A stretch of DNA of 64,000 nucleotides from Mytilus trossulus. Its lineage: Eukaryota. The stretch covers positions 45,159,216 to 45,223,215 of the forward strand of contig NC_086385.1 of assembly GCF_036588685.1 (NCBI RefSeq). The letters are read 5' to 3'. A program made the translations under genes and the position numbers. This document shows positions 5,128 to 63,111 of the stretch, one piece after another (position 1 is the first letter of the stretch; each line of letters starts with the position of its first letter). The notes below the pieces were generated by a model. That model made no database searches. It was not told the DNA's origin and saw only the letters and a list, made by a program, of their open reading frames with translations.

Positions 5128-6212
5128 TTATCCGTTTTTAGATGGTGACGTTCCCTTGTCACCATCTTACGGTGTTTATATATCTCAACTTGTACGATTC
5201 GATCGTGTATGTAACAATGTTTTAGATTTTAACGAGAGAAATATATGTATTACTGAAAAAATATTACACCAGGGTTTTCGATATCACAAACTAGTCAAAA
5301 CATTTACTAAATTTTATCATCGGTATAAAGACATCATTCGTAAATATAGCTCAACATGCAGACTTCTTATACGTTCAAATATTTCACATCCAATTTTTTA
5401 TGGAAATATTCTTTATAAAGCCAGAGGTGTCAGTATTCACCTCATAAACTTACAAAACCTTTGAATAGACTTATTAAGAATGGATATAATTACGATACTG
5501 TTGTCAAGTCATTAAAGATTGCATATTTTGGCGTTAATATTGAGTCACTGATAAGGTCTTTGCGTCGGACTAAACACATTTATTCTAAAAACAGTTGTTG
5601 GCATGACACGGGTTATGTTCTTCTCATATATGTTATGATGGTACGATACTAAACCCCTTACGGGAAGGATTGTGCCTGATGTTCATATGATGAAATCATA
5701 ATCTTTCAGTCAGTCTAATTGAAGTCTGGAGCTGGCTTGTCAGTTAACTGCTAGTAGTCTGTTGTTATTTATGTATTATTGTCATTTTGTTTATTTTCTT
5801 TGGTTACATCTTCTGACATCAGACTCGGACTTCTCTTGAACTGAATTTTAATGTGCGTATTGTTATGCTTTTACTTTTCTACATTGGTTAGAGGTATAGG
5901 GGGAGGGTTGAGATTTCACAAACATGTTTAACCCCGCCGCATTTTTGCGCCTGTCCCAAGTCAGGAGCCTCTGGCCTTTGTTAGTCTTGTATTATTTAAA
6001 TTTTAGTTTCTTGTGTACAATTTAGAAATTAGTATGGCGTTCATTATCACTGAACTAGTATATATTTGTTTAGGGGCCAGCTGAAGGACGCCTCCGGGTG
6101 CGGGAATTTCTCGCTACATTGAAGACCTGTTGGTGACCTTCTGCTGTTGTTTTTTTATTTGGTCGGGTTGTTGTCGCTTTGACACATTCCTCATTTTCAT
6201 TCTCAAATTTAT
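5128..6212 (+). mobile_element. 5'-truncated retroelement (Penelope-like RT C-terminal region) with 3' non-coding tail
   Basis: The ORF fragment FLDGDVPLSPSYGVYISQLVRF..VCNNVLDFNERN resembles the post-RT region of PLE-type elements and is frameshifted near 5420-5460. It is absent from the paralogous position (23345). Confidence 0.65.
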
Positions 6213-6389
6213 CATCCAGTTGTTTCATAAATGTTAGGTTTCCAGCATCACTAAAGCCACACGATCAAGAGACATTACTTCCAGTGCCAAATAGTTCATG
6301 CATTGGTTTTATGGATTCTTTTTATTAATATGAATGTTATGTAATCAACGCCGGTTATAAGTGATTACCGTAATTGCAAATTTAATTTG

Positions 6390-8619: not shown

Positions 8620-10274
8620 TTAGTTCTTTTGCATGTATGGTTTTAAGTGTGTGCCAAGATCTTTCATTGAAAATTGTTTTTTTTTTTAGATTTCCCACTT
8701 GACTGTCCATCTTGTGTCTTTTGCACATCTCTTATTACTTTGTCGTAAATGTTATCGATATCTTCCATCCGTTTAAAGGCGATTTTAAGTTGTGTATTTT
8801 GAGAAATCTCTTCAAATTTCGAACATTTTTTCAAGCTTTGAATTTGTTTCCTAGATGCTACAATAATGCATCCAGTCAGGTATCCATTTAAATTGTACTT
8901 TTCCGCTTCAAGAATTTTGATGATAATTTGTACTGATGTGATCGAATCTGACTTAGACAAAACACCCTTTATAAGGAACTTTTCAATTCTTTCCTTTAAA
9001 TCTTTCGTTTGATATTCCTCAGCTAATGGAAGCATATGATGAACAGTGGCTTCTGAAACAATTCAAAATATGCAAAAACATAACTTATAAAGGATTTGCA
9101 TTGAATATAATAATGATTTTTCTTAAAATTGAATGTAGTTAATTGTTTTATTTTGTTATATCTTTTAAGAATTATAAAGATATCAGTTATGATAATCTAT
9201 AGCTAACTATTAGGTATGAACTTTGTTCTTATTGTGTGTATTTGAAAAAATGATGTACATTGTATGTAATGAGAAGGTGTGCACCTTTAAATTGTTATGC
9301 TTATTCATGCACAACAACATTTGCAAGAATGTTTTTTTTCGAGCAAAGTTTCTTCTTTTTTAATTTAATTTCATTGCTGTAGTAAACAAAAATATGAAAA
9401 ATCCTTTTTTGTTAGCGTAATGTTTTTTTATTTGTGTTACACATTTGATTGGCTGAGTTGATTTTTTTTATAAATGTCAATTGTCATAGTTGATAAATAC
9501 ATGTGCAATTCTAATTGACCAAAAACACTTTTAGATTTTCCAAATCTTCCCCTAAGCTGCAAACATTAGTTTTAAATTTAAGTAGCAGAAACTTTTTGCG
9601 GTCAAAAGTAAAAACACAAAAATACGTATACTGAACTCAGACAAAAATTCAAAAAGGAAAGTTCAAAATCAAAAGGCAAAATCAAAAGTCCAAACACATC
9701 AAACGAATGGGTAACAACTGTCATATTCCTGACTTGGTACAGACGTTTTCTAATAAATTCACTATAACGTGAGCATAGTAGTATATTTGTATTTACCTGT
9801 TAGTACATCTGCAAATCCCGGACATAAATAACGTAGAAAATGAACAAAATTACTGTGCTTTTTGTCAGGTAAAGGTATTTCTTTCATCGATCCTTCAAGA
9901 AAGTTAGAACTAAACATTGCCTCAAACACAGGCGACACGGCTATGAGGTGCTCCTTTTGTAGATAGAGCTTTCTGTTGTCAAATACCAAAACGATGTTTG
10001 GTTCATTGAAAGGAGAAGCCAAGTTTTCAGCATCGCTTTTTATCTCTTCTAAATNNNNNNNNNNNNNNNNNNNNNNNNNNNNNNNNNNNNNNNNNNNNNN
10101 NNNNNNNNNNNNNNNNNNNNNNNNNNNNNNNNNNNNNNNNNNNNNNNNNNNNNNNNNNNNNNNNNNNNNNNNNNNNNNNNNNNNNNNNNNNNNNNNNNNN
10201 NNNNNNNNNNNNNNATTTACTATCCCTACTGTTTGAATTTGGTTATAATTTTCTGCCCTTCTAGACTGGTCCAT
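8620..10274 (-). CDS. BTB/POZ-domain protein, copy 1 (coding exons 10274-9797 and 9052-8620; apparent frameshift at the A11 run 8677-8687, with the as-assembled stop at 8664; 160-N gap at 10055-10214)
   Basis: BTB motif PNIVLVF..KLYLQKEHLIAVSPVFEAMFSSNFLEGSMKEIPLP. A phase-1 GT-AG intron (9796-9053) gives LT-E-ATVHHMLPLAEEYQ. The paralog-like C-terminus QFSMKDLGTHLKPYMQKN* lies in a shifted frame. Probable 5' UTR intron 10302-10600. Confidence 0.85.
10055..10214. other. Assembly gap (160 N) inside the first coding exon of BTB copy 1
   Basis: Run of N in the sequence. Confidence 1.
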
Positions 10275-15619: not shown

Positions 15620-16940
15620 AAGTTCAAAATAATTTTCAAAATACAATGTTTTCAACCGACATTTGAAAGTATCCAAAGTTCAGAGTTTCTTACATTTGTA
15701 CCTAGTTCATTCCACAATCTTAGCCCAATAGTACTAAAGCTTCTATCTGAAAAAGTATTCTTTTTTTTATATGGGACTGCATAACAACCAATAGATGACT
15801 CTGACGACCTTAATACACGTTTCATCGCTTAAGGATTTAACAAATTGATCAAATATGACGGTGCATTAACTACATGACAGTTTTCCATATATATTAAGAT
15901 TTTAAATGTAATTCTGGCTTTGATATGAAGCCAGTGTAAGTCAAACAATGCCTGATTGGCACTATCATACTTAGAACGGTTAAACACAAGTTTGGCACGC
16001 ATATTCTGTATACGTTGCAATTTATATAAATCAGTTTGTGAAATTCGAAAAAGTATAACATTGCAATAATCTAAATGTGATATAACCAAAGATAAGACCA
16101 AAATTTCAGTTGCTTCTTTCGATAGATAGGATAATATGCACTTTATTTTGTAGTAGCTCATCATTGCTGTCTTACATTTTTTTTAGTGATATGGTCTTTG
16201 AAGTTTACAATCTCTTCCAGAAAAGCTCATAAGTACCGTATATATGTTTTTGATTTTATAACATCTCCACAAATGATTATTTCTTTAGTTTGACATCTAG
16301 AGAGTTGGTGTCCACTGACAAAGAGAATACACTCTGTTTTCGCATTGTTCAATTTTAGTCTGTTACTGTTTATCCAGGTGTTTATATGAACAGAGCAGTC
16401 CTGTAGGTCACGAATTGCATCCATCTCATTCGTTAATGTTGGCACGAAACGTTTATTAGCAGTATGGTCGTCGGCAAATCCGTACACAGTAATAGATGGT
16501 GGAATAATGTCGAATAGAGTTCCGGCGTAGACAAAATAAAGCCAGGGACCTAAGCAACTTCCCTGTGGTACGCTTCACTCACGTTGTCGCTCTGATGATG
16601 TTGTAGAGCTGACATTTACACGACATCTTCGAAGTCTCAAATAGGAATCGATCCATTTAATTGCGGTTCCATTTACACCGTTATGATATTTGAGTACTTT
16701 TATCAAAATACTATGATCTACAGTATCATATGCTGCACTTAAATCAACGGCGATCATAGCGATGACTTCTTGATGCTCCATCCCATCGAGTATGTCATGA
16801 ACAAGTCGTAGAAGGGCCGATTCGCACGAATGGAATTGACGATACGCAGATTGGTTTGAAGGAAGGAGTTTCACGTGTTCATTCAGTCTATATAGCTCAC
16901 ATTTTTCAATTAATTTAGACAGGAAAGACAAGTTGCTTAT
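15620..16940 (-). mobile_element. Degraded 5'-truncated non-LTR retrotransposon (CR1/L2-group RT)
   Basis: RT motifs NLSFLSKLIEK, NQSAYRQFHSCESAL, DLSAAYDTVDH, VPQGSCLGP, YGFADDH, KLNNAKTE, SHLDYCN, LHWL, split by frameshifts. Confidence 0.9.
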
Positions 16941-19129
16941 TTGTCTTTATATACCTATATGGAGTTATTTTCTTTCAGAACGACAAGTCATTCTTTTTCA
17001 GAATCAACCCAGACGATACCATTTTTCAATGAAATATGATCAAAGGCATAAAATAATGACCTGTGTGAGGTCATTATTTTCTTGATAAAAATGCAGTTTA
17101 TAATTTACTTCAAAATTTTATTCGTCTGATAGTTTTTTGTTGCCGATTGGGAAATTTGTATTTAAAAGTTCAATCAATGATAGATGTAAAATTTACCTTC
17201 ATTGCCCGCATTTTAATTTTAGAAACAAATAACGCATGAAATTTTGTTAATTTATCGCTTCAATAAAGAAACATTATCGTATATGTGCCAGATGTAACAT
17301 ATTCGTGTGTTAAATTTTAAAAACCTGATTGAGTCACACTGAATAGGTTGGTTGATTTTTGGTTGCTTGCTTAACGTCCAGTGGCACATATTTTATGCAT
17401 GTTCAGGACGATAAACGCTAAAAAAGAAATCATACGGTGACCTACATGTATTTATATTCGTCTTTCTGTCAGTTCTTAACTTTTCTATATTTATGTTTAC
17501 CTTTTACTCTATCAAATGATCAACTAGTAAGATAATCTTATATTCTATTGAATAACATTAACGTAACTCAGAAAAGGGTCGGGTACATGCGGAGGGAATA
17601 TAATTATATCATGATTATCTGTTAATAAAATGTACTAGTATTGCTATTCAAAAGATAATCTTTCTGAATTTTTCATTCGATTCAATACAATTTGTTAAAA
17701 AAAAACACTTTTCCGCGATAGAAATGACATTACAAATAGAAAAAAAAACCATACCCCTCCCCTTTTCCATAAACTAAGTGGTACAATAAATTACTAACAA
17801 TGTGTCTTGTATTTGTCATACACCGTTATCGGATGGTAACAATACATTTGTGTCTTACTTCATGCAGTTACACTTTTTATTGTGTAGGTTTATATCTAGA
17901 TTTATAAGTGAGTTTTATTTCACATTCTAAATGAGACGTAGGGCGTATTAAAACCTGAAAGCATAAGAAAGGAATACCCCACTTTAGTGTTGTCGGTAAA
18001 ATAGGATACTAAATTTTGCAAATCATTATAAAAAAATATATTTTTTTGACGGTATATAAGTCAGATAATGCATATTTTAATGTTTTTCATGTCGTAGAAC
18101 ACAACTGGGGGTGTCAGGATTGCTCAAAGAAAGACTTCCCTACGGTCGGTCTTTCATTTGATCAATCTTTACACCCCTCGGTGTGTTCTACGACAAGAAA
18201 AACCTTAAAATATGCATTATCTATAACATAATTTGAGTAAATTAGTTCAAGACCAGTCATTTTCAGCAGAGGCCTGACTACCGCTTGCTTCCATCTTGAT
18301 TTTCAATAATGCATACTTAGAGTAGACAACAGCCGAATGCCACCAATGGCTCTTCAATGCAGCTAGAAACTCTCGCACAAAGAGCCACACTATAAATAAT
18401 GGTAGGTGTATCTCAAATGTAAAGAGAGGAATGTCTATATTAAAGTCGTATTCCTTTGTCAGTACGATGACCATACCATATAATTGCTTAATTTGTTAAC
18501 ACTGCAGCATAGGCAATACATAGTATTTATCTATATGCAAGTTACATTGATGCAAGTTGCTCTGTGATGAATTGTTATGCACCATTTCCTTTTGACAACC
18601 CTTGCAAGAAATTACTGATAAAAGGTCTAATTTAAAAGAAACTCCAAAATTGTCCTTCATAATTTTATATAATTTGGTGGTTAAGAGCATGAAACTCTTA
18701 TTCTTCAATTGCATATTTGAAATCAACAATATTCACTGTTTTATTTTATTTTATTTCACTTCTACTCATATTACTTCTATTTGTACTGGAGAAGTACTAC
18801 TTATAATGTACAACCCAAAAACACATATATTGTATACATTATTGAATTTAAATTAGCAGTTTCAGTTAGAAATTGTTCAAAGGCACGTAATAAATTGCAG
18901 TAAAACTTTGACTGCATCATCCATACATCATCATTTTATAAATATGTACTTTTACGCTTTGCTGTAAAAAATTGACGGCAATGATTTTTATTAGGTTGTC
19001 GTTTATATTTGATATCTGAGGTATCTTTTTTTCATTTACACTATGATAACTACATAAAAATGAGGAGAACAAAAGCAGAAACATTTCTAACCGACCACTT
19101 TCAGAATTATTCTTAGCAAGGATATTATG

Positions 19130-28235: not shown

Positions 28236-29788
28236 TTAGTTATCTTTCATGTATGGTTTTAAGTTAGTGCCAAGATCTCTCATATGAAATTGATTTGTTT
28301 TTAGTCTTGTGAGTCCAAGGTCACTTTGTACTGCATTATTGTAAATCTTATCGATATTGTCCATCCGTTTAAAGGCAATTTTAAGGTGTGTATTTTGAGA
28401 TATCTCTTCAAATTTCGAATTTCTTTTCAAGCTTTGAAATTTTTTCCGAGATGCTACATCAATGCATGCAGTCAGGTAGTCGTTTAACTTGTACCTTTCC
28501 GCTTCATGAATATCTGAGATAATTTGTTCTGATGTGATGGAATCTGACTCAGACAAAACGCCCTTGGTAAGGAACTTTTCAATCTTTTTCTTTAAATCAT
28601 CAGTTTGATATTCATCAGCTAAATGCAACATATGATGAACAGTGTCTTCTGAAAAGAAAAAAAAGTAAATAAATGCATTGATGTCTTTTAAACTACAGCA
28701 TTGCAATACATGCACTTGCATTTGAAAGAATAATGAGACATTCTAAAAATGATATTATGAAGAAGTAGATCCGTGAAGCTTACGCAAAACTTACGAAGAC
28801 AGTCGACATCGTTTTTCAAATACATCTCCTTGACAACATTAAGTTTTAATAAAAGACAAGATTTAATGTCAAGCTCTTAGATAAAAAACATTACTTGCAC
28901 TGACGTTTTATAAATTCTGATGAGTTCTTTCTTACGACAACCGCAATATTCCCTTTTGCAAAAAACAAATGATTGCTATTACATTTTCGTAAGTATGTTG
29001 GCCAGGCGTGCAAATTGATGGTAAACTATCGTCTGGCGTAATAGATATTGAACCTGGTACCTTTTGTTAGCTATTATTCGTGTGTTTCTCTGTCCTATGT
29101 GTTTCTTCATTTATTTATAACTGTAGTCTTGTCATGTAATGTTGTCTTTTTGATTTTGACGGGCAGTTTGGCATGACACAAATCCAGGTTCAATCCACCA
29201 TTTTTTTCTAAAATGTCCTGTGCCTATTCAAGAAACTGACCGTTGTTATAGTATAGTTCGTTTCTGTGTGTGTTACATTTTCATGTTGTGTTTCTGTCGT
29301 GTCGTAGTTCTCCTCTTATATTCGATGTGTTTCCCTCAAGTTTAGTTTGAAACCCGGATTTATTTCTCTAAATCGATTTATGAATTACGAACTGCGGTAT
29401 ACTACTGTTGTCTTTATTTACCTGTAAGTTCATCTTCGAATCCCGGAGACAGATAACGCAGGAAATGAACAAAATGACTAATTTTTTTACCAGGTAGAGG
29501 TATATCTTCTAAAGATCCTTCCAGAAATGTAGGACTAAACATTGCTTTAAACACAGGCGAGACGTCTATAAGATAATCCTTTTGTGCATAGAGCTTACTT
29601 GTACCAAAAACAAATGCGATATTTGGTTGATTAAAAGGTAAGGCTAAGTTTTTTTCCCGGCTTGATAAATGTTCAAAATCTTCCTCTGAGTCATTCGACC
29701 ATTCTTCTTCACTAAAAGTATCATCATTTTCACTTATTTCTTGTAGAATTGGTTCCCCATCTTTTGTACTTGTAGAAGGTTTCTGCAT
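28236..29788 (-). CDS. BTB/POZ-domain protein, copy 2 (coding exons 29788-29422 and 28648-28236; 259 aa)
   Basis: ATG at 29788 (MQKPSTSTK) downstream of an acceptor at about 29816. Acidic N-terminus, then PNIAFVF..LYAQKDYLIDVSPVFKAMF. Phase-1 GT-AG intron. 367+413=780 nt in frame. Confidence 0.9.
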
Positions 29789-32700
29789 TTCATCAAACCC
29801 CAATTATATGTATTCCTGGTAATATAATATATATGTCACATATTTGGATTACAGATATATCGTTAATGAAAATATGCAAAAGGCTGCAACAAGTGTGTTA
29901 ATTGTCCGTTAACAAAAACGAAAAAATCAAGGGTATTGGCATAACAGAAATATATGTCCATTTATCAAACATTACAGTTCTTGTTTTAAACATACCAATG
30001 TTGTGTGTTACAAAACACAAGATGATAGTAAAGCTAGTAAATGACAAATATGGACAAATGGTTACTTTTATATATGTTATTGTGCATGTTTAACGGTGAA
30101 TGGTGCAACCTCTTTTCTCCCTCAATATTTTTAAAATGCGATTGCTTTTGTTTGTCTATTCTTTGATAGTCTTTGAAACATTTATTCAGTATTATTCTTA
30201 CAACGGTTGGTACACTGACAGATGGTATTTCCTGTTTAAAACACAATATTCTAACCTAACCTTTTTATTAGGGTGACTCATTTGCCTTCAAATATTCACC
30301 CCATTTTAAATGAACGCCCTACAACAAACGAATTATGCGTATTGTTGCACAATTTAAAACCATCTTTATAATGATGAGATAAGATTTAAAGGAAAAAACA
30401 CCCTTTTGAAATTTTATAAATTAAAAACATGAAAAAGTTACTACTAGAATTTAAAAGGTTGATGACTTTTTTTTTTTTTTATATTTTAAGTAAAAACAAA
30501 CTTTAGATGGAGAGAAACAAACATACAAAAATTATAAAAAAAACCAAGATCAACAAGTTTGATTTATCAAATTTCAAAATATATACTGCATGGTACTTAA
30601 CATAATGCATATATAGGTTTATTTCAAAGATAAAGAAGAACCTACACCTGGAATAGACATTTGCACCAATTATAGTAGGTTACAATCTGTAATGAATTAC
30701 TTACTTGTAATAGTTTAGAATCAGAAATAAATGTCAATTATAATTTATAATACATGTCTAGCACAACTATAACAATAAAATATACAATTTATTTCGATGT
30801 TTATATTGAGAAGAGACGGACCCCAAAGTGAATATATTATTTGTCTTTTGAAGTTCAATTTGCGATATATGTAGTTTGAGTTATGTGTTTAAGTATTTTA
30901 TTTCTTCGTTCTCTTTGAGATTATTATTGCGCTTGAACGTTAAAGACAATAGCTGATAAGATATATTTAAATAGCACTACAATGAAGATCTAACAATAGC
31001 CTTATCATGAACATTTATATTACACTTGATATAAATTTACTCATATCTAAAAGACTAGGCCTAACAATCTTAAAAAATTTACATCTGTTTTTTATATAAA
31101 TTTAACTTTCTTACAACAACTTCGCGCGAACGACATGACCTAGTGTCTGAACTTTAACCTCCATCAAGTATGTTAAACAGTTAAGTTCGTGGAACGAAAA
31201 GCAAATCGAGAGATCTGAGCATTCCCTATTTACCTGTCTGCAAAATAAAAGGTAAAAAAAACCTTGCGAAAACTACTGTCATGTTTATCGGAGATTGGTT
31301 ACCCTGTTTGTTCAAAAATTAGCTTCATGACATTTTTACTTTCATGTTAATACTCTGAACACGGAGATATAAATGGAAAAAATAAACATATATAAAAAAT
31401 ATTCACCTTCAGAACCTTCAAGTCAGTTATAGTTATCCTTGTGTATATTACTTGTTGACTATACATATAGCAAATACAATGAAGTTTAAATAAATTCAGT
31501 CATTTAAATGTATTTGACCATATCTTACTGTTTAATTATATATACGTTTAGTAAACCTTTTGTTACACTTATGTCGCCTCGCCTGATGTATCTATTAACA
31601 GATTGGACCAGATAGTAACTATTTTTTTCCATAGTTAATATGAGGCGTAACTTGACTGGTAACAAAAGGCTATTACGAAATAGTTTGCAATTGAAGTATT
31701 CATGGTTTCAAATATTTAATTTAGAAGAATAAGGGTATAATTATGGAATCAACAAACGTGTATATTGACTGAAGATTCTTTTTTTTTTGTGGGTATCAAT
31801 TTTCGTGGTTTGAAGAACACATACATTTTCGTGGATATTTAATTTCGTGGTTTTGGCAAATTCTACAGCTACACTCATTCTGTAAGAACATTGGTAATTC
31901 GTTGAACATTTGAATTCGTGGTTCTCCTGTATCTCCTGTATCCACGAAATCCACGAATATTAGTATCCAACGAATATAAATGTTTGTATATAGTAGATGT
32001 TTTTGTGTCCTGTTAAATTGTTATACGATGATGACTGATGTACCCATATTTCGACTATTTTATTAATTGTGACTGTTTATTTAACGCATCATGTAAATGT
32101 AGCGGAATTTGATGAGACTGTTATTAAAGTGAGAGAGTTAGCGCTATAGAACCAGGTTTAATCCACCATTTTCTACATTTGAAAATGCCTGTGCCAAGTC
32201 AGGAATGTGGCAGTTCTTGTCCATTCGTTTTTGATGCGTTTTGTTTTTTGATTTTGCCATGTGATTATGGACTTTCGAAATTGATTTTCCTCTGAGTTCG
32301 GTATTTTTGTGATTTTATTCTTTACAAGTTGAGATAAAAAAATCGAACGAAAAAGCGTTTGCGTCAAACTTATGTAAGAGATTTCGCTGCACACAAAATG
32401 CATTTTTTCGAAAGATAGAGTGGTTATGATGTGTATAATTGTATATTGGGATTTATAACAGGAATACATCAAATGCTGTAGTTTTATTTCTGAACCTGAA
32501 CTAGTGGTGTTACATCATACAAGGTCTATCCATAATACTTTTGCAAAGACTTCTACTCAGGCAAATGCTCGGGCCGTCTTAAACTTGCAATGAAGTGAAA
32601 GTTTGTTTTCCTTCATGTTGAAGGCTTCACTGTGACTTTAAGCCGAAGAACTGTTTCATTGCCTTTTGCGCCTTTTGCTTCACAAGTATGTAATGATACA

Positions 32701-36647: not shown

Positions 36648-38355
36648 TTAGTTCTCTTTCATGTATTTTTTTAAATGTTCACCAACCTCTTTGATATCAA
36701 TTTCATATTGTTTAGGTTCATTAGACACGCTCGACCCAAATCCTCTTGAATAACCATGTATCACTTTAGTTTCCTGATGCCGTATGAACTGAGGACTAAC
36801 TTTTACGGCCTTGTTAAATATCTTATCGATATCTTTCCACCGTTTGAAGCTAATTTTACTTTGTGTAGTTTGAGATATTTCTTCAAATTTTGGACTTTTT
36901 GTCAAGCTGTCAAACTTTTTCCGGGAAGCAACTGCAATGGATTCTTTTAAATAGTCAGATAATTTGTACATTTCCGCTTCAAGAATATCTAATATGATTT
37001 GCTCTGAAGTGATGGAATCTGATTTGGAAATCACACCATCAACCAGAAAATCTTCAATTCTTTTCTTTAAATCATCAGTTTGATATTCATCAGCTAAAGG
37101 CAACATATGATGAACATTGTCTTCTGGAAAAAATCAATTGGTTTTCAAAGATTACATTTAAAAAACATGTTTAGTTTAGATGAATTTGAGTTTTTATCTT
37201 TAAAAAAATGAATTGCCTTCAGTGATATATGGGACACAACTCACTTACACTGCAACCGACACAGAGTTATAAACAACAAATATTTTGAAAGTAAAAACCT
37301 TAATATAGTAACAATAACAAGAGTTGCCGGATGAAATATCCAAACGTATAGAGACTAATGAGTTCTACTTCAATATTCAATTATGAATAAAAAGAATAAG
37401 ATGAATTACATACTTATGTATGATGGTTGTACCAATGAGGCCCATTGAATTATGATTGATTGATTGGTTGTTTAATTAATTGCTGCTTATTTAACGTTCA
37501 CTGAAAATAATTCCGTTTATTTTTAGGACGATGTTGGTTTAAAAATCCGACAAGAGTAATTTGGGGTGTAGGTTCTGCTAAGGAGAGTGGTGCTAAATGC
37601 AAAATATCGCCATCTGACATGTTAAATATACAGAAAGCCATTTTGAGATCGTCCATTATCATAAATTTAAAATCACGAAAGTTATCAAAACATGTAATGA
37701 ATAAATCATCCAGAATTCTTCCCAATTGATAGTATTGTCATTCCCAAAAAATACCGCCTTTCCGGAGCCGCAGATTGGCATTTTCTATATTATGAAAATG
37801 CAAAAAAATAATTGTAAAAAATCTGTTAAAAACAAAACGATAAAAAATTTATGGAAATCTGAGATACATGTACTTAATGTACGTAATTGTTATTGTCTAT
37901 ATCTAAATATGACGACCAGATGTTCTAATTACAGGTCAATTGATGTATTTACCTGATAATTCATCATCGAATCCTGGAGTCAGATAACGTAAAAAAAGAA
38001 CAAAATGGCTGAGTTTTTTCCCTGGTAAAGGTACCTCTTCCTTCGATCCTTCAAGGAATGAAGAACTAAACATGGCCTTAAACACAGGAGACACCGCTAT
38101 AAGAAGTTCCTTTTGAACAAAGATCTTTGTGTTACCAAAAACCAATCCAACATTCTGTTGAGTGAAAGGTGACGCCAAATTTTGTTCATTGCTTGTTAAC
38201 TTTTCTAAAGGGTCTTCTTCTTTTACCGCATCTTCATTTTCTATTTCATCATTACTATTTAAGTCATCCGAAACAGCTGATCTCGGTGACTTTTCTTCTT
38301 CTCGTGTTCTCAATGAATCTGTGATTGAGTGTTTCATCCGGTGACGTAGCTCCAT
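36648..38355 (-). CDS. BTB/POZ-domain protein, copy 3 (coding exons 38355-37953 and 37123-36648; 292 aa)
   Basis: QNVGLVF..IFVQKELLIAVSPVFKAMFSSSFLEGSKEEVPLP with the same phase-1 intron. 403+476=879 nt in frame. Probable 5' UTR intron 38408-38602. AATAAA on the minus strand at 36469-36474. Confidence 0.9.
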
Positions 38356-38989
38356 GTCTGAGCTACTGGTGTTGTTGAGTCTGATGATTACACAAATATG
38401 TGTTTAACTGGAAATAAACATGTTCAACGTTTGAGTTTTTAGGACGTTGGTAGATATAAAACAAGACGATACACTGTAGGTGTATATCAATAAACATGTT
38501 ATATATATGCACTATTTGCCCTAAAAAGTATATTATATTTTTGAGACAAATTCGACATCTTTATATACATCAAAGCTGTCTTCTGTGATATGTTCATATT
38601 ACCTTCTAATCTATTCATTTCTAGTAATACGATTGGTTGAAAGCAACAGCGTGAACATTGTTTATACATCATGTGGGTTAGGTAGGCATGGCATAGTTAA
38701 TTAACCAGGAAAATTCATAATATCTGAAAACAATCTTAATAAAAGATATTCAGAAATATATTTATTATATTGACGATGATCAAATATTTTTTTTAATTGC
38801 TGGTTCATCCTAAGAGGAAATGTGAAAACTAAAATAATAAAACTTTTTAAAATCTCTTTTTATCTTTTTAAATTATACTGTTTGTTCTGAAATGAACTAT
38901 ATAAAAACCTCAATCAATTCTTTATATTTTTTATGTAAGCGGGATCCCAACCATCCCCTTACCTATTACGAGACAAAAATAACAACGCA

Positions 38990-47129: not shown

Positions 47130-50100
47130 ATGGTAAGTCCACAGCTTAAGATAATCATATATTTCCCCTCAGAAACTCTCTACACGTACATATAAAGGTT
47201 GTTTTTTTTATGAAAAAAGCTAAGTTTTGGCTGACTTGTGATTTTTTTTCATACGTGTTGATGTTTACAAATGTACAACCAATTTTTAGTTTAATTGAAA
47301 TGTTAGGTGTAATAGCATAAGTCTATCAATGCCAATATTTGCTAATATAACACAGCATATAAAGTAGCAAGCTATATCTACATGAAGGATTTAGAAAAAT
47401 ACTCATAAACATTCATTAATATTGCAGGTTTTGATCACTTCTGTTTTGTCTTACTCATGTTTAATACCATAATTTTGTTTTCTTAACCTTTTGTTAGAAA
47501 ACTGGAAAATATTACAGGGATTTGGAAAACCTTCTTATGCTTCTGAGAGTATAGAATAACTGCAATATAAGTGCAGCGAACTGTTTTAAACACATAAAAA
47601 TGTTTATTTAATTTCTGCTTAAAAAGTGTTAAATGGATACCTTACAAATTTATCATCTGTTTTTTTCGGATCATTACGGAAAATTGAAAATAGAAAAGGT
47701 GGAAATTTCTCTTCTTGTCTTACATGTACAACTATCAGACATGGAGAAAAATGATTGTTCATTATCATATTGTTAACAAGATTTTTAAATACCTTGATAT
47801 CTGTTTGAGTTTCTCCAACTAGAACATTTTAGAGGAGATAACCTGCAATTTGATATCAGTCTAACCAAAAGTTATTTCTCAAATTACCTGAAACACAGAA
47901 ACGACAGACCTTACATTTCTAACTCACAGTGAGGGTACTAGAAAATAGGATTGTTTTTTTTTCGGCCATAATTTGATACTCCTCTAAATTGAATGATTTT
48001 TCAAAGACTGACACTCAATATCATTATAACATAGAAGAAATAAGTTCTTTCCCTGCTAAACCTTTTAGTTATTTTTACTGTTCGAAAAAAAATTACAGGA
48101 CGTATTATCGCATACAAATGTCCGGCGTCCGTCTGTCTGTCTGGCGTAAACTTGTCACACCGTAACTTGAGAACAATTTTTTAAAATTTCATGAATCTTA
48201 ACATGGTTGTTTCTTATGATGGTCAAATGATCTGTTTACTCTCTCGTGAAAATCATATTGAAACTTTTTTGAGTTACGGGACTTTTTAACTAAAAAAGGG
48301 TGTTTTTTTTTAACATGTCGCACCGTATCTCAAAAACGAGTTATGATTATTGCTAAAAACTTTACACACTTCTTACTTATATTTATCTGAAGATCTGTAT
48401 AATTTGTGATGATGATTTAAAATTTTATTTTAGAGTAATTGAATTTTTTTGTAAGAAAAAAAAGGGGGGTCACATGTCGCGCCGTAACTCAGAAAATTAT
48501 GATTATTACATAAAACTTCACACACAAAACGACGGGCATATCATGCACTCGTGGCGCAGCTGTTTATTCTACATGCTCTACGATAAACTAGCATTTACGA
48601 TTATATCTTGAATGGTTTTATGTATATCAGCCCTGCTATTTACAGGGATACTAAACATGTGGACAAGAGTTGCTCCCAAATATTTTCAATGTGAATCATA
48701 TACATACATATAGAATAAGTAACCGTGAATAACAAATCTTAATTTGAATGGGAAAAACTCTGAAACTATTTACCTTTTCTCTTTAGATGAAAAATACTCT
48801 ATTTTTGTGGGCTGTTTTATGTTTTGTACACGAAACCGTAGGTAAGTTTGAAAACTTTTACAAATTTTAAACCATTATCAATAATATATAAACTATTATT
48901 ATGTATGCTACCATGATATTTAATATTTGCAAACATACCCATCCAACATGAAAGGTTGTGCAAAATTGATTCAGGATTTGAAATTGGTTTAATATTCAAT
49001 CCACCAATGAATATGAGCTTGAATAATGTTGTATTTGCATGATGTAGATGGTCCAAGACCACAGTAACGTCCTTTGTCCTAGTGTGGACAGTGTGTTGCA
49101 GTGTGTAACTTCCAAATCTATTTCTCCATGTTTTATGCATTAAATAGCAAGTGAGGGGGGGGGGGAATAAAATTACACTGAAAATCAAAATAGGTCACGA
49201 ATTTTAAAGATGTCAGTTTGTTTTAGATTTATGAGTTTGACTGTCCCTTTGGTATCTTTCGTCCCTCTTTTAAAGTAAAGTAGTGATTTAGTCCAGCTGA
49301 AAAAGTTTTAAAAGGTTAGAACTTCGGAAGCTGTCAAAAGATTTCGAGACCCCTATAAGATAACATTTTCAATATTAAGAGTTAGATCCGATAAAGTTTT
49401 CTTTTAGTTTGTTCTCATTAGTCCCAAAAGTAATACAACACACTGTAAACATATTATCAAGAAAGCGCAGGAGGATTTTTTTTTCAATTTTCATTTATTG
49501 TCTAAAAGAAATGCCCTACTTAACTGTGACCAAATATAAGAAGAAGTCATGTTCCTATTAACAGAATATCATTCGGCAGTCCTCGGAAGAATCCGTTACT
49601 CTCCTTTTATCGTGAGATGAGGGTACGGAATCGGCCGAGTTGATACGAATGCAGAATATGTTTGATTGAAAACATGATTAAGTCGATAATTTTATTTTTA
49701 TAGGGATCAAAAGGTTTTTGTTTGACAACAGCTGTGAAGAGGGAGAACGACGTTGGGAAAAATGCTACGGGTGTATCTGTAAGCATGAACAACATTTAGG
49801 TATGTACATAACATAGACACTAGAAGATGTGATATGATTGGTCAATTAAAAGATGTGATATGATTGGTCAATTAAAAGATGCGATATGATTGGTCAATTA
49901 AAAGAACATTCAATTACCCATGATGTAAATAATAATAATTCATTGCATGGCCTTCAACAATAGACCAAGTTCATATTTTATATTTAGAGTGAGGTATACA
50001 AAGGAAAGAGATGCCTATAACAGTTTCACAAAAATCCACTTCACCAGAAGCGAATTTCATAAAAAAAAATTATCGATGATTCAGAAAAATCCAATGCCTA

Positions 50101-53100
50101 TTACATGTAACAAAGATTTGAATCAAACTGGAATCAATTCAAAAGTGAAAACCAACTGTTTTTTTGTAAATTGGTAGAATAAAACCTAAATATATTGCTT
50201 TACATTTCAATGATAAGTGGCTTATATGGTACATATGATATGCAGCTTGAACCAGTTCTTGCTCCTACTAAAATCGGCCAGCAACTGAACTCGGACATAT
50301 AAATAGTTAGAACAATACACGAAAACCAAATTTTAACTTAAGAGTAATGTAACGATTTACTTGAAATTTAAAGTGTTTTCATTTAATATTTAATTCATTT
50401 CTTTAGAGTGTTTAGATTGCCATAGATGTAAAGGTCTGAGCTGTAATGGTGAGGTTTTTTTTTTATGTCATAGTCTCCTTATTATACACACATTCTGACT
50501 AAAATATAGATTCGGTGCATTTTCTTTCTACTATGAAGAAGAACTTTCGGATTTTCTAGCTTCATCGAATTATTACTCACCTTGAACAATTTGAAGGGCG
50601 AAATCATATTGGCTTATGTAATAATTATAATAAAAGAAATTAAAACTAAGTGTTGTGAAATCTTTTTCAGCAAAACTTAAACACATTATCTGCTTTAAAA
50701 AAAAAATGTCATACGAAAACTCTATTTCGCACGAGTCTGGTTCGACACATAGACAGTAGTTGTATTGATAGAATATGGTACATGTAACTGGCTAAATACA
50801 CGTAGAACTAGCTTAATTGCGGTTCTTAAATTTGATCCTGACATAAATACACCTTCGCATTGTGTAAAAAGTGTAAACAAAAAAACATTGGTATGATATT
50901 CTGAGGACTAACATTGAATTTTAAGCAGATTTTATAAACTCACAGACACTGGTATCTGAAATAGTTTTCCTTTATATTTGGTTATACATAACATGTGCAA
51001 CAAGCACTATGTCTTGTATCTGTATTGTTACATGATAACTATAACATAATTGAGATACTCAAATCTATTTTTTTTTAAATGATTCTCGATTGAAAACTTC
51101 CGTTATATTTAGATTCCTCGGTTGTCTATCCGACCGAAACTAAATTTATTTTAAACTATCTAAACAATGGTGTATAACACGCATATATATGTCTATTTCC
51201 GGAATCATTCGCGGATCAAAATATGACGGCAGTTTGCGACCGAGTATCGTTTCTTAAAAATGCTAGTTGGGTACTTTGTGTTATATAAAGTTTTATTCTA
51301 TAGATTATTATGTTTTCAGAGACAAGATATAAAAAACAAATTGTTAACTTAAATCATAAAGTATTTTTTTGTTACATTTTAGATCAAACAGAAGCACCAA
51401 AGACTCATGCTCCTCATATAACTCATGCGCCACATGCAACTCATGCACCACATAAAACTCATGCACCAGTTGTTACCCATGCACCACATACCAGTACATG
51501 CGACATCGTTGCTGTTTTTGATGCCGTTGCAAGAAATCAATTTGTCAATAACTCACGAGCTGCACAATGTCCTAACGATGGTCGCCATGATAACGATGCT
51601 TTAGTTATGACACTTTGCAACGCCCCTGTGAGTTCTAAATGGGTTGAAGGCGAACAGGTAATTCACAACAGACTTTAAGATACAAACAATTATCGATCAC
51701 GTGGTCACGTGAAATACCCGTATCGTAACCATAATATGTTTGATAAATCACGTTAAATTATTCATTTTGAAATAAAATATAACAACTTTAAGCTAAGACT
51801 TCAAGATAGAAGCGAAAAATATCAATGGGATAGTTTGACTCATTAATCGAAACTATCTGACAATACTTTGGTAAAAAACGAAAAGCGACTAAAAGAAAAA
51901 AAAAAGTACACAAAACACAACACAGTAAACTAAAGACTGATCAATAAGAACCTCAACCATAAACCGCGGGGGAGGGGTGATGTCGGGTTCTCTGGAAAGA
52001 GGCACAAAGTTGTTCGTGTAATAACTCTAATTCGGTCATATCTGAATAAAACAGGATGGGATTATAGTAACGTCGTTATCTGTGAAATAGATACTAGTAC
52101 TTTATACGTGTATTTGGTTTTATTCGATATATTTCATACGGATGTCTTTTTAAACGCTTTCATAACTTTTATAGGTACTTTTAAGGAATGGGACGTGCTC
52201 AAAATTAGCTAAACCATACACACCAGTATTTTATCATCCACGACGAAATGTAAGACAAGCAGGCATACTTATATCATGTGATGGAAATGAGATCAGGGTA
52301 AGTATTGAACTTAACATTTTTTATTCATGTCATGTATAAAAAAATATTCTTGAAGATAATATAAATAATAATTAGTACAAAATAAAAATTAAAAGATGCG
52401 TTGTAATTTCTAATGGGAAAACTCACCACTTGGACCTGTACATGTGTAAATATTTACAGTGCATGGTCAAATTGAGAATTGAAACAGGGAATGTGTCAAA
52501 TAGTATTTAAACAACCCGACCAAAGAGAAGGAAAGAGCTCAATGGGTCTGCAAAATAGCAAGAAAATCTCCCACCTGGAGTCGGGCTCCAGCTGGCTTCG
52601 ATTTCAAAGAGTGTGAAGGTTCAGTGGAAATGGACGTCATTTTAAACTCTTTAAAAAAACATATATATATATATATAAATGAACCAATAAGAAAAAATAA
52701 AAAAGTCCATAGATTCCTGACTAGAGACATGCGGGAAAATGTGGTGGCATTAAACATAAACATGTTATAGATATAGGAAGATGTTGTATGAGTGCCAATG
52801 AGACAACTCTCTGATTGGTCTCAGAAGTTACAAGCCAGTCAACACTGAGTTTGTGAGTTCGAATCCCGCTCTTGCGGGTGCACTCGACTCCAATCTAAAT
52901 TGATTAAGATTGTCAGATTTCCTATCGAAGGTTGGTAGTTTTTAAAAGGAACTCCGGCTTCATCTACCAATAAAACTAGCCAACACGAAATAGCATAAAT
53001 GCGGTGCTTAAAAGCGGCGTTAAAACAACAAAAATCAAATCAAATGAAATTAATGTTTTATATTATTTTATCTTTGTTATTTTGTTTTATAGGTTTTCCA

Positions 53101-53182
53101 TCAAGAATGCGATACTACTCCAGAAGTTAGGCATGTTGAAGCAGAACCACTCGATAAAATATATATATTAACATGGACTTGA
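47130..53182 (+). CDS. Secreted protein A, 195 aa: signal peptide + Cys micro-exon + (xTHAPH)5 linker + Tae2/Dae2-like domain lacking catalytic residues. Exons 47130-47132, 48787-48841, 50407-50448, 51383-51657, 52175-52297, 53093-53182
   Basis: All introns are GT-AG with compatible phases (0,1,1,0,0); 588 nt open. ATTAAA follows immediately at the stop. Protein: MMKNTLFLWAVLCFVHETVECLDCHRCKGLSCNDQTEAPKTHAPH...CDIVAVFDAVARNQF...GRHDNDALVMTLCNAPVSSKWVEGEQVLLRNGTCSKLAKPYTPVFYHPRRNVRQAGILISCDGNEIRVFHQECDTTPEVRHVEAEPLDKIYILTWT. The family assignment is from recalled motifs only. Confidence 0.85.
48075..48565 (+). mobile_element. HINE/pearl-like element with a (gtcy)n microsatellite and ~160-bp internal repeats, in intron 1 of gene A
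   Basis: gtccggcgtccgtctgtctgtct followed by units starting tgtc(a/g)c(a/g)ccgta at about 48153, 48316 and 48475, with a short GC-rich 3' stem remnant. Confidence 0.6.
49824..49903. repeat. 27-bp tandem repeat, 3 copies (aagatgtgatatgattggtcaattaaa)
   Basis: Read directly from the sequence. Confidence 0.9.
52810..53045 (+). mobile_element. tRNA-derived SINE in the last intron of gene A
   Basis: B-box gttcgaatcc (52857-52866), body ...actccggcttc...accaataaaact...gcggcgttaaaac, and an (aaatc)n tail. Confidence 0.7.
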
Positions 53183-57643: not shown

Positions 57644-60600
57644 ATGAACAAATTTGTACTGCTTGCTTTGTTATGTGCCATCCATGTAAAACAAGCAGAT
57701 CTTTTTGTTGTTGGTAACTATATTACAAAGTTTTATAAATATATTACTAAATTAAAGTAAATTTAACACTTTGACATGAATAGAACAGTTCGTTGTTTTC
57801 ATATACCAACGTTATCCAGTGCTGAAATATAGTACAAAACCAGTCCAATCTAATGAATGAATCATGTTTTCTCATGAGGCTTATAATTAAATGTAAGTCA
57901 GAAGACATCAAATGAACTTAGTGTAGAAACGTCATAAACTGTAATGGTTTCATGGAAAGTAGTCTAAGATGATTCTTATCTGCATATAAAATAAATAAAT
58001 AAATGGTTGTAGTATTTAAGTAAACGTTTAGATAACTCTTTTTTAAGATCATGGACACCACCACTGTTCTAAAGGATCCAGTACATGGGATGATTGTCAA
58101 AAATGCAAATGTGATCATGATATAAGAAGTAAGCTTAACGTAGTTAAGATAATTTTATTATGTATCTTGTATGTTCAAATTTAGACATTAATATCATGAT
58201 TATACGTATAGATGAAGTAGCTATTTACCTAGGCGACAATGTTTGCCTTTTGGGGTTTTGCATTTTCAATATAAAAGATCCGTTGATAAAACTGACAAAA
58301 TCTGAATGATCAACACTGTTGGGTGTATATGTAACCGCAAACAATATATGTTATTATACTTCACGTTAAAATGCCATATTTTGATTGGCTAATACGAGGG
58401 TGTTAATTTACTCTATTACATAGCTGAAAGGGTGACACATTTTTTTTAATGTTACCCTTTCGTCTAGAACCATCAAAACCGATAGTTTAACGGACAATGC
58501 ATTGAATTTAAATCAAGTAATTTCAAAAAGACAATGTTAAAAATCTACGTGTTGGTTCAGATTTTATTATTGGACTGTCAGAATAAAAAAAAACAACATT
58601 TTATTTGTTATTTTTTTCTAACATCCGTACATTTATTATGTGCGTGACGGCATAGAAAATACTTTTAAAATAAAATTATTCTGTAAAAGACTATAATGAT
58701 AAAACGTTCAGTATAATAAATAAAATAACACACACCTTTGCCGCTGTTGATAATGTGTTCTCTGGGTAACAATCTGCTCTATCACCCTCTCAGTTATATG
58801 TTATTTATATAGTGCCGCATCTTTTTTGGATACAAAAAGGCATTTTTTTAAGATTCCGGAATTTCGAAATAAATGTAGTAAGAACGAATTTGCTAAATTT
58901 GACACAGAAAATGTTGCTCGTCACAGAAGGTTTCCTAAACATTTATCGTAGTTTCTACACCAAAAAGCAGTAGAAATAGAAATAAAAAATTATATGATAT
59001 CCTTGAACCGATAATCGTATATTTTTACCACCTAATACGCAAATATACAATTAGGTTATGTAACGACTTTATTATGATACGGATCATGCATCCTCTCTTT
59101 GCTGAAAGAATATCACAATGTTCATTCTACGATCTGATTTGAATGGTTCTTGTATATATTTACAAACCTATAAAAGATTTTTGAGTCCGTATTCCGCAAA
59201 ATGTTTACATGACACGGGAACTTTAAATGAAGGAGATATGGATTTTGTTATTTCTTATATGCTCTTGTTTGCTAACGACGTATATCGTCTCAGTTTCGTA
59301 TTTGGCCATTGACTTTTAGGAAATCTATTCAATTATACATGTAAACCATTTCTCTATGGTCAATTTTACTTCAAATTTATTTGTTAATAATTTAATGTTG
59401 GATTGCACGCGTCTTCTAATTGGGTGGAATGCGTCTCTTAATTGGCTGAAAGTGTTTTGTCTTTTAGCTCATATACATAATGCTTTCATGTGACATTGAC
59501 AATATCAACATTTTTTCATGCTTTATTCTGGCTGAAACTGGAATTGAAAATTTAGAATTAAACTGCAAGGAATGAGTGTTATATTTTTATTGTCTATTCG
59601 AAATAATATTAAAAATGAGTACACAATTTAGAATAACCCGTTATTTCTTCATAGACCGAAATATATTACAGTCATTCCTTAATGTCGACATGGTCAACAT
59701 TTTTAACGATGGACGATTTCAATTGCTTTTAAGCTAATACTTGTTCAACAATGGAATGTCATTTCATCTTTAACCTTATAAATCATCATATTCTTAGATT
59801 TTTATTTTTATTTTACTTCGTTAACCAATAAAAAAATAAAAAAAAAAGCCGTATCAGATGCTTCTGATTGTTGACGCCTCGTTCCAAGAGTATCATGTAC
59901 AACTTATCACTGAAAATAAACGTTTCAAACATTAGAATTGGAATAACAAAGTTTTTCTGTCTCCGGATTTGGTAAAAAAAAATGATTTATTTAATCGAAA
60001 GTTGCCTTCCACTTCGTTATTTATCTTGACTTTCAACATTTTAAATCACAAATCGTAGATATGCCATGTAAACGAAACGCACGTCTTGTTATCTCATATA
60101 TAAATTTTAATGACCTGTTGTGAAAATGGAGCTATGTTTTGCAGATCGTATAGGTTTTGATAACAGTTTGAATGCAGCAAGGAAATACTCATTTTAAAAA
60201 TTCAAATGCTGATGTCTTTCAGTTTTCTGTATTTGTAGCATGTTGTGAGCGTTAAAATTAATATGTAATGCAAAATCTTTTTTTTTTCAATCAAAAAGGT
60301 TTATTAAACAAGATTGGTATTCTTATTTTCATCACAAACCATGTTGACATAATTTTATAGAAAGGTACTTCAATGATGAGGTTCTTGAATTTTGATAATC
60401 AAAAGAACATACGACTGATTATAATCATCTTCTACCTGGCTAGTGATTCAAACATATAATCCCATGTAATGGTCTGTATTTATCCCAAACCTCTGGTTAT
60501 GCGAAAAATTATAAAAAAAAATACAAAAAAAAAAACAACAACATTTTAGCCCTTTATAAAACACATTACTATATACTTTTTTTAATCTTTTTTTTTAATT

Positions 60601-63111
60601 TTGAATTTAGGTATTTATTTTCATGATATAAGTAACTGGGAGACAATAAACTAAAGGCAGAGAAATTAAACGATTCAAATTATATGAATTATTTAGTGTA
60701 CTTATATGTTTCCGCCTATTCGATTGTTTGCTTCCATAATGTCATAATTTTCCTATCTGGATAATGGACTTATCCTTTGAATGAAGCAGTTTACGTTGGT
60801 ACCCAGTTAAAGCAGTTAAAACTTTATGAAGCAGTGACACTAACTTACATACGCTCAAACATGAAATTATATGTGATATATAGGGCATTGTACTGGTGTT
60901 GTTACGACAATACTGTTTCATCAAATGAAATAGTTTCCTTTTTTTAAATCATTATATAACAATATTGACAAAATGAGGGAAGATTTGTTATAAATATACA
61001 ATGGGTTGTAATAGTTTTGATATTATATTCCATAAACCGATCGAGCAATTCGTCGATAGTTATTGCTATACTAAAAATACAAAGTTGATCAACAATCGAT
61101 ATTGAACATATGTTGAAATACAAAATAGTTTAAGACCTTTGAAATCAAGGCCTTTTTTCAGAATGCAAGGACTGCGGATTGTGTTATGGTTTTGTACATT
61201 GCGAAGGTAAGTTTTTTTCTTCAGTAACCTTATGAATTCATAGAGAAAAGCGATATTTGTAACAATGTCATATAAGCGAGAGGTTTAGTTAGCCATAAAA
61301 CCGGGTTCAAACCACCGTTGTCTAAAAATGCCCGTTACCAAGCCAGGGATGTGGTAGTTGTTATCTCATAGTCCTTGTCTACATGTCTGTTGGCGATTAT
61401 TTTTGTAGCACGTCAGTACTTCTGTTGTTCCGTGTTTTTCCTCTTATAGTTGAGGAATAACTATTAGTTTCTCTCAGTATTGGTTTGTGATTCGTATTTG
61501 TTAAAATTCAATCGATTTTTGATACCATTTTTGTCTTTGTTAAATACAGACGGTATCCTCAACACAGGAAATGTAGTAAATGTTATAGTGCTCTTCAACT
61601 TTTTACTTGTTTGGCTTTTTAAATATTTTGTTATGAGCGTCACTGATGAGTCTTATGTAGACAAAACGCGCGTATGGCGTACTAAATTATAACCCTGGTA
61701 TTGTTGATAACTGGTATAGTTATAATATCAAAATGCTATATATCCAATGATTTTTCTCCGATAAAGTGTGTAGTTCAAGTATCACACGAATGTAAATAGA
61801 TCAACATGGATAGAATATATTTATCATTATGTCCCTGAAAACCATTTTCAGATTATGATGACAACTTAGAATCAAACAATATATATAAAATTAAACTTTA
61901 ACAACCTATCAATGACCAGTACCAAACTATACACCATATTTTCTCAAATCAAATAAAAAATGAAAAGTAAAAAAAACCCACAAATACCGACCTCCAAGGA
62001 AAATTCAAAATTGATAGTTCGTTATCAGATAAAAAAAAATCAAACTCAAACACACAAAACGAGAAAAAAAACACTGTCATATTCCTGACTTCCTTATTCT
62101 TTTGTAGAAAGTGTGTGAAGCATTATTTTATAGCTGGATGATCTAGTATCCGTATAACATCAGTTAAAAAGAATATACACATGCAAAAATTACAACCAAC
62201 TTAACCTTGGAAAATATTACCAAATATGGAAAACTTAAAGTCATAAGAAACGCGTTACCGGTGAAAAATAATGTTCTTCCAATTCTTGAACCAATGCATA
62301 CAATTCAAACATCATAAACTTAGTCTTCTGTGCTCGAAGTTATCATTTTTTTGTGTAAATTTCGCTATATAATTTTATAAGAGAAAATGTTCCCATCCAT
62401 TGATAAGTAATATATTCAAATTTATAATACTAGTTCTCCATTTCCATTATCAATTTGAAAGTATTTCTTTGCAGTTGCATACACGCTGCATCATGATGTT
62501 CACATACCCAGCTAACACGTAACGCTAGTGAGTGTGCATATTAACATGGATATGCTCTTTAATATCTGGTAAAACAAGATGTCAGATAAGAAAATTTTAC
62601 TAGTTGTATCCTTATACCGCTTTTGACATTTTGACTGATTGTGAATTTACATGACCTGGCTATGGTGCACGGATAATACGAGACGCAAACGCTATCGTCG
62701 CACCCAGTATTGCGTCATTCTTATGTCGTGCAATTCAATCAGTTTGTGTCAATCAGTCAACGAGATATGCACTTTGTTAACATAAAATTGACGTTATCAA
62801 TTTGTTATACTATAAAATAAATTGGGTGACATGATTTAACATTTTTTTCATATTTTATTTACACCCTTTGTTTTTAAGTTCACACGAATGCACCATTACC
62901 AGTTGTGACTGATTCACCTATAACTACAAGTAAACCACATTCCAGTTCATGCGACATTGTTGCTATTTTTGACGCTGTTGCCAGAAACCAGTTTATCGAG
63001 AATTTGAATGCTACAACATGTCATAACGGCCAGGGCCGTCATGATAACGATGCTCTAGTTATGACACTGTGCAATGCACCTGAGAGTGCTAAGTGGATTG
63101 AGGGAGAACAG
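57644..63111 (+). CDS. Secreted protein B, paralog of A, 3'-incomplete in this window. Exons 57644-57713, 61162-61206, 62879-63111
   Basis: MNKFVLLALLCAIHVKQADLFVV|ECKDCGLCYGFVHCE|VHTNAPLPVVTDSPITTSKPHSSSCDIVAIFDAVARNQFIENLNATTCHNGQGRHDNDALVMTLCNAPESAKWIEGEQ. Intron phases match gene A (1,1,0). 41 of 54 core residues are identical to A. Confidence 0.8.

Follow-up and report, generated by a model that had tools for sequence, protein, structure and literature searches.

The locus studied here raises the question of why two tandem genes of the mussel Mytilus trossulus keep an identical stretch of protein across the former catalytic site of an enzyme-like domain, in which the catalytic cysteine position is occupied by asparagine. 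The window, which is the whole stretch of 64,000 nucleotides analysed (assembly GCF_036588685.1, contig NC_086385.1, positions 45,159,216 to 45,223,215 of the forward strand), contains gene A and the first four exons of its paralog, gene B. A preliminary description of the window had noticed this stretch of identity, and it passed over the loss of the catalytic His, a third paralog (gene C), intact relatives in the same genome and a mollusc-wide family.

Structure, expression and maintenance of genes A, B and C

Gene A has six exons (48787-53182) and encodes 226 residues. Its product consists, in order, of a hydrophobic leader, an eight-Cys module, a stalk of Thr/His/Ala/Pro repeats and a C-terminal domain of about 123 residues, which is the subject of this study. 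The features of the three genes are as follows.

48787..48841, + strand: gene A exon 1, which carries the start codon and a putative signal peptide (by scan; joint to exon 2 in X2 and X7 transcript contigs; ortholog P0002)
49704..49799, + strand: gene A exon 2, N-terminal half of the eight-Cys module (transcript contigs)
50407..50448, + strand: gene A exon 3, C-terminal half of the eight-Cys module (transcript contigs)
51383..51657, + strand: gene A exon 4, stalk of Thr/His/Ala/Pro repeats followed by the N-terminal half of the Tae2-like domain (transcript contigs)
51580..51627, + strand: 16-codon block (residues 131-146 of A), with a loop, the beginning of the former catalytic helix and one conserved Cys
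51592..51594, + strand: Asn135 of A, at the catalytic Cys position (alignments)
51595..51597, + strand: Asp136 of A, the acid at Cys+1 that marks the non-catalytic family
52175..52297, + strand: gene A exon 5; Gln184 (52256-52258) at the catalytic His position
53093..53182, + strand: gene A exon 6, ending at the stop codon; the D/E-Q motif has His200 in place of its acid and keeps its Gln (Gln201)
57644..57713, + strand: gene B exon 1, predicted signal peptide (an X7 contig joins 57713 to exon 2)
58048..58128, + strand: gene B exon 2, first half of the eight-Cys module
61162..61206, + strand: gene B exon 3, second half of the eight-Cys module (splice signals only)
62879..63111, + strand: gene B exon 4, which holds the other copy of the block (63034-63081); matches P0005
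L001:4669-4788 and 6163-6252: gene B exons 5 and 6, past the end of the window
L002:1964-6779 (G000:C13): paralog C, in tandem after B just past the window; 209 residues in six exons arranged as in A and B, with an open frame when joined at the splice signals

For gene A, the transcript contigs of X2 (recorded as RNA) and X7 (presumed RNA) show all five introns spliced at GT..AG joints; those of X3 show four of the five. One raw-read run, of which 6% was read, had zero reads over exons 3-4. A frameshift in exon 5 was considered and rejected, since phase 0 reads open and the joint is present in transcripts. A named ortholog of gene A is 98% identical over the query exon. Like the Dae genes of other animals, A and B have introns and predicted secretion; gene A is a eukaryotic gene that is expressed and has a hydrophobic N-terminus by simple scan.

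Selection on the domain was measured by Nei-Gojobori dN/dS with bootstrap limits for the three paralogs. The ratio was 0.19 for A/B (bootstrap 0.10-0.35), 0.17 for A/C and 0.16 for B/C, at a dS of about 0.9-1.0, with upper bootstrap limits of 0.27-0.35. Among the seven variant sites listed in exons 5-6, six are synonymous. The domain is under purifying selection and the gene is maintained; the earlier view that the gene is kept and is not decaying is therefore supported both by spliced transcripts and by dN/dS below 0.2.

The eight-Cys module (window 49704-50448 in A and 58048-61206 in B) follows the pattern C-x6-W-x2-C-x2-C-x-C ... C-x2-C-x2-C-x3-5-C. It had no Atlas match and, among the proteins compared, it matches only the Mytilus A/B/C proteins. 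Its structure model has pLDDT below 50 over most of its length. It could be a small disulfide-rich defence domain.

Elsewhere in the window, tandem genes with a BTB/POZ domain lie on the minus strand (8667-9062, 28239-29803 and 36651-38403); three of the five frames tested had a Pfam BTB match, and the other two are alike by eye. Broken fragments of a LINE-type reverse transcriptase are also found on the minus strand (15832-16946), two frames of which match RVT_1.

Origin of the C-terminal domain

No Pfam family matched the domain of A-C, and a phmmer search of solved structures with P0002 yielded a chance match only. The top Atlas match of the domain was a BPSL0067-family cluster (0.94). A model of the gene B domain, built from a 104-row alignment, reached a pLDDT of 90. 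With this model, Foldseek ranked Tae2 (6WIN) first (prob 1.00, E 5.6e-3), and VIA also ranked 6WIN first, with Z 11.5 and rmsd 2.6 over 108 residues, the runner-up having Z 8.5. The domain is thus predicted to have a papain-like NlpC/P60-CHAP fold that is closest to Tae2.

Profile-profile comparison (hhalign) of 52 non-catalytic with 4 intact proteins gave 99.55% and an E of 1.9e-23; a mostly non-catalytic profile alone reached only E 0.52 against 6WIN. In the hhalign register, the catalytic Cys is matched by the Asn of the block, the Val after it by the second Asp, and the catalytic His by an Arg, for which A has Gln and B has Leu. HMMER alignments to 6WIN gave the same register. The preliminary description had placed the Asn at a presumed nucleophile position, and it does align with the catalytic Cys of Tae2/Dae2-type enzymes. 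A different register was produced by MAFFT in alignment A4, in which the intact catalytic Cys slid onto an upstream disulfide Cys; it was rejected because the intact proteins P0126 and P0161 align gap-free and because hhalign and HMMER agree.

The NF033857 model of this family has a cut-off of 27 bits. P0002, P0005 and P0006 had no match to it and P0001 scored 13.3 bits; P0010, which is of the type found on contig C11, scored 20.4 bits, and the intact proteins P0013 and P0014 scored 45 bits. A match at E<=0.01 was obtained for 37 of the 104 aligned members. Contig C7 of the same genome carries intact relatives with the motifs QCVALV and DHTAVF, whose named orthologs pass the cut-off, and gene A shares two phase-0 introns at matching codons with these intact Cys/His Dae2 paralogs. 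Taken together, the alignment, the shared introns and the NF033857 matches show that the domain of A/B/C shares descent with intact Tae2/Dae2 members. Despite this descent, A-C were not filed as amidases, since they lack the catalytic features and score below the cut-off.

The C7 cluster itself (L012, L013, L014 and L019; G000:C7, about 28.22-28.25 Mb, minus strand) contains three Cys-bearing dae2-like 5' exons, one His exon with GA at the expected donor GT and another copy of the His exon with an in-frame stop. Some of the dae2-like copies there may be broken.

Loss of the catalytic residues

A, B and C all have Asn at the catalytic Cys position. The catalytic His position is occupied by Gln in A, Leu in B and Arg in C. 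The acid of the D/E-Q motif, which we take to be the third triad residue by comparison with CHAP enzymes, is replaced by His in A and C and by Phe in B. Compared with Tae2/Dae2 amidases (BPSL0067, NF033857; 6WIN; tick Dae2), the domain is therefore alike in predicted fold, core motifs and register, but Cys, His and the D/E-Q acid are all replaced, an acid is found at Cys+1, and an eight-Cys module and a stalk precede the domain. The first domain of P0001, the ortholog of A in M. coruscus, has His at the catalytic His site, still without Cys; this His and the Gln of gene A are one base apart. In 6WIN, Cys23 and His73 are given as catalytic (10.1101/2020.04.10.036376), and tick Dae2 C43A is described there as catalytically inactive. 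A Cys-to-Ala mutant of Nematostella Dae4 neither lyses nor kills bacteria, according to PMC8713801. Judged by residue content and by analogy, the domain of A/B/C should be incapable of Cys-His amidase chemistry, because the Dae4 mutant does not kill and Dae2 C43A is called inactive.

A non-catalytic family in molluscs

A search with a profile built from six non-catalytic Mytilus proteins gave 160 clusters at E<=0.001, 150 of which were listed. From 161 proteins, 168 domains were cut, nine were dropped (repeats, duplicates and mis-spliced models) and 132 were kept at a reference coverage of at least 75%. Four of these 132 full domains have both Cys and His. The remaining 128 have no Cys at the site, and only two of them have the catalytic His. 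The D/E-Q acid is kept as Asp or Glu in 7 of the 132, four of them intact.

Across the 128 domains, the Cys site is occupied by Ser (49), Asn (24), Pro (14), Ala (13), Asp (12), His (9) or another residue (7), and by Cys in none. Because the site is variable across the family, the Asn is not special, and the idea that the Asn itself is a selected novelty was not supported. The next position, Cys+1, is Glu in 87, Asp in 31 and another residue in 10 (acid in 118/128, 92%), and it is Val in the four intact relatives and in Tae2. In the alignment, an acid at Cys+1 is the new constant of the non-catalytic family. The other top conserved columns comprise six of Cys and one each of Trp, Tyr, Gln and Pro; among 115 columns, the His of the block ranks 91, its first Asp 82 and its Asn 56. 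The Gln of the D/E-Q motif is kept in 112 of the 128. The Cys+1 acid and this Gln are thus among the most conserved non-Cys columns, and the acid is absent from the intact relatives, so that the pair might be thought to act as catalytic acid/base on cell-wall or other substrates. We consider such new chemistry very improbable. Glu and Asp interchange at the site (87 to 31), which is unusual for a catalytic acid, and no nucleophile is conserved. Furthermore, the Gln is also present in intact enzymes and is therefore probably structural.

In a tree of 135 columns with four intact rows and no bacterial outgroup, from a search seeded with non-catalytic sequences, the 128 non-catalytic domains form one side of a branch with an SH-aLRT of 99. 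A scan for bacterial relatives of the intact eukaryotic proteins gave eight pattern matches and no relative. The comparison of sequences indicates that catalysis was lost far earlier than the A/B duplication. From the tree we infer a single early loss in molluscs; if there was only one loss, it predates the split of bivalves and gastropods. Thirty proteins were looked up, 28 of which are non-catalytic, and 23 of the 28 carry, or cluster with, a species name. Twenty-two of these proteins are from bivalves, the named hosts belonging to six orders (Mytilus, Crassostrea, Saccostrea, Ostrea, Pecten, Mizuhopecten, Argopecten, Mercenaria, Ruditapes, Mactra, Mya and Sinanodonta), and one is from the abalone Haliotis asinina. 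The members are labelled 'uncharacterized' or 'mucin-like', or are named for their EGF parts, and they have no Pfam family of their own.

Two genes of other subfamilies of the non-catalytic family were seen in the M. trossulus genome at L007:904-3542 (G000:C11) and L016:5554-7563 (G000:C12). They have Pro or Asp at the Cys site and Ile or Gly at the His site.

Conservation of the 16-codon block

The translation of window 51580-51627 in gene A is GRHDNDALVMTLCNAP, and the identical 16-residue peptide starts at 63034 in gene B. The preliminary description had reported that the block is identical in 16/16 residues despite six synonymous differences and that the introns and linkers of A and B do not align. 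Both statements were reproduced. Exactly the same six codons differ, with 6 synonymous versus 0 replacement differences. Blastn of the two gene regions gave nine matches, three of which are the three domain exons, and the remaining six (38-137 nt, four of them inverted) are non-collinear and repeat-like; no match came from the linker or the upstream exons. The neutral probability of 6/6 synonymous changes in the block is 1.7e-4. The codons concerned are those of G, R, two L, the Asn of CNAP and A. The aac/aat change is thus in the Asn of CNAP, not in the nucleophile-site Asn. None of the six falls in the H, D, N and D codons, which are the same in A and B, and the A/B pair is therefore silent on direct selection there. 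The nucleophile-site Asn has a synonymous difference only versus paralog C (AAT in C vs AAC), which has EH where the A/B block has GR.

Among 28 sliding A/B windows over the domain, only the reported block is free of replacements. An identical run of at least 16 residues occurs in 17% of shuffles (p 0.17), with 90 of 122 domain positions identical between A and B, and Fisher's test of the block against the rest of the domain gives p 0.026, uncorrected for the post hoc choice of the block. By itself, the 16-codon identity is ordinary purifying selection and part of the constraint on the whole domain.

More information comes from the mussel clade. The His, Asn and second Asp of H-D-N-D are invariant in 11/11 copies of this clade. 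This agrees with the earlier statement that the Asn is older than the A/B duplication, and it means that the motif is fixed in the clade at these three residues, although the Cys site is variable family-wide. The fixation of three residues is also what a clade-specific metal site made of H-D-N-D, proposed in the preliminary description, would need. The first Asp, on the other hand, is kept in 7/11 copies; in the other 4/11, among them the 98%-identical ortholog of A, it is Ala, Gly or Asn. Outside the clade, H-x-N-[D/E] is present in 0/120 domains. It is also rare for four successive residues at the start of a helix to contact a single ion together. Because the first Asp varies and H-x-N-D is confined to the clade, a four-residue metal site is unlikely, and we give this proposal hardly any credence.

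The ligand half of that proposal fared better, since the block is conserved within subfamilies. Over an 11-residue block, pairs of the mussel clade are 93-94% identical at 52-70% identity outside the block, these pairs not being independent, and other, non-clade pairs are 59-72% identical over the block. Near-fixed versions in other subfamilies include SQSEALL, SHEAFV and GSDDAYV. A block that is conserved within and different between subfamilies is the pattern expected of a specificity site.

Helix capping, as judged from the models and the alignment, also fits the pattern of the block. Ser, Thr, Asp and Asn favour helix starts, and these four residues make up 88/128 (69%) at the Cys site and 78/128 at Cys-1, against a background of 28%. 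In both models, a helix begins at or just after the Asn of the block, and the Asn is thus predicted to lie at the start of the old catalytic helix; the residue spectrum of the Cys site fits such a helix start. It could be that the block is kept for folding only, with Asn/Asp capping the helix, ALV packing in the core, the Cys in a disulfide and the working surface elsewhere. The p of 0.17 for the 16-residue run agrees with this, as does a run of nine invariant columns that has p 0.30 on eight clade rows. The same run, however, has p 0.009 once two extra exon-4 rows are added, and positions that are free in the family (Met, Thr, Leu and His) are fixed in the mussel clade. The higher identity of clade pairs than of other pairs in the block points the same way, for pairs that are non-independent and a block that was picked post hoc. 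Acid at Cys+1 in 92% also seems high for mere capping. We therefore regard a role in folding only as improbable.

Function of the domain

The non-catalytic members of at least 200 aa (n=95) have the domain at the C-terminus in 93 cases, with a T/P/S-rich stalk ahead of it in 70; simple scans gave a hydrophobic N-terminus for 60 of them and an internal hydrophobic segment for 2. Partner modules in the 90 proteins scanned were EGF-type (17), ShK (4) and TSP1 (3), and VWA, Ig V-set and bacterial SH3 were found once each. An SH3b-like module precedes the domain in 10 of 101 N-terminal regions (P0053, P0034, P0070 and seven others), including the two nearest neighbours of the mussel clade; genes A-C have no such module. 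One SH3b-like module scores 27.3 bits on Pfam SH3_3, for which the cut-off is 27; this Pfam-positive protein joined the profile of the other modules at E 0.028, and its link to them is weak. The SH3b-like module itself is possibly of bacterial origin.

We favour, with about even confidence, the reading that A and B are predicted secreted proteins with a dead Tae2/Dae2-type domain, whose old groove would bind peptidoglycan but not cleave it. On this reading, catalysis was lost once, early in molluscs, which would have left a Tae2/Dae2 fold without the Cys-His dyad. The acid at Cys+1 may then have reshaped the old pocket, and each subfamily may have tuned the old groove in its own way, while the groove would still bind the stem peptides of peptidoglycan. 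A domain mounted on a stalk could trap or tag bacteria in mucus or body fluid, and the intact C7 enzymes of the same genome would do the cutting.

Dead domains of this kind are known in bacteria. The dead NlpC/P60 domain of DUF1175/MagC is described in PMC10318531 as peptidoglycan-binding, and PDB titles describe RipD in the same way. RipD and MagC likewise have a dead papain-like cell-wall hydrolase fold, but they are bacterial and belong to other branches of the superfamily (Z 5.0-5.9 vs 11.5 for Tae2). Peptidoglycan binding is shown for them, as far as these sources go, whereas for the mussel domain it is suggested by ancestry and by the SH3b-like fusions of its relatives.

The most serious alternative is that the dead domain binds a non-bacterial partner, such as a protein or glycan of the host's own mucus, shell matrix or byssus, as an adhesion module of the extracellular matrix. 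Fusions with EGF, TSP1, VWA, ShK and Ig modules, the mucin-like stalks in 70/95 members and the His-rich linker of A are consistent with such a role. In particular, the commonest recognised partner module is a generic one (EGF-type), which we counted against the peptidoglycan reading. The old catalytic sites are also heavily diverged; since the Cys and His sites are widely variable and the loop before the His site is shortened in the mussel clade, the groove may have changed its ligand. Nevertheless, the domain descends from a peptidoglycan amidase, SH3b-like partners occur in 10/101 members, and the known dead NlpC/P60 domains retain peptidoglycan binding. A host partner is rather unlikely in our judgement.

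A wider history can be proposed, which we put forward as tentative. A bacterial warfare enzyme, once acquired by animals, would have lost catalysis a single time, before the bivalve-gastropod split, and have become a secreted, so far overlooked pattern-recognition family, in which subfamilies (here with H-x-N-D) may read different cell-wall structures.

Relation to known Dae proteins and significance

An animal Dae without the catalytic Cys is already on record, in PMC8713801, for one Nematostella tae4 gene. This second tae4 homolog of Nematostella vectensis is induced together with its active paralog. The Nematostella case is like the present one in that a domesticated amidase effector of an animal lacks the catalytic Cys. 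It differs in belonging to the Tae4 family and in being a single gene, whereas the mollusc family is Tae2-derived, has more than 100 clusters and shows modular fusions. We found no description of this molluscan family in the literature listings searched; the figures and supplements of Chou et al. 2015 and Hayes et al. 2020 may already include Dae2 copies that are molluscan or non-catalytic.

Dae proteins serve as a standard illustration of how animals took over a bacterial toxin and use it as an enzyme that kills. In the present family, the acquired fold has instead multiplied in a non-catalytic form, with 128 domains at the 50% cluster level. Because intact and dead versions are present in the same genome, a direct test is possible. 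If the dead domain binds peptidoglycan, the family would add a novel type of protein to those with which molluscs recognise bacteria, which would bear on shellfish immunity, and it would be a clear case of conversion of an enzyme to a binder after gene transfer.
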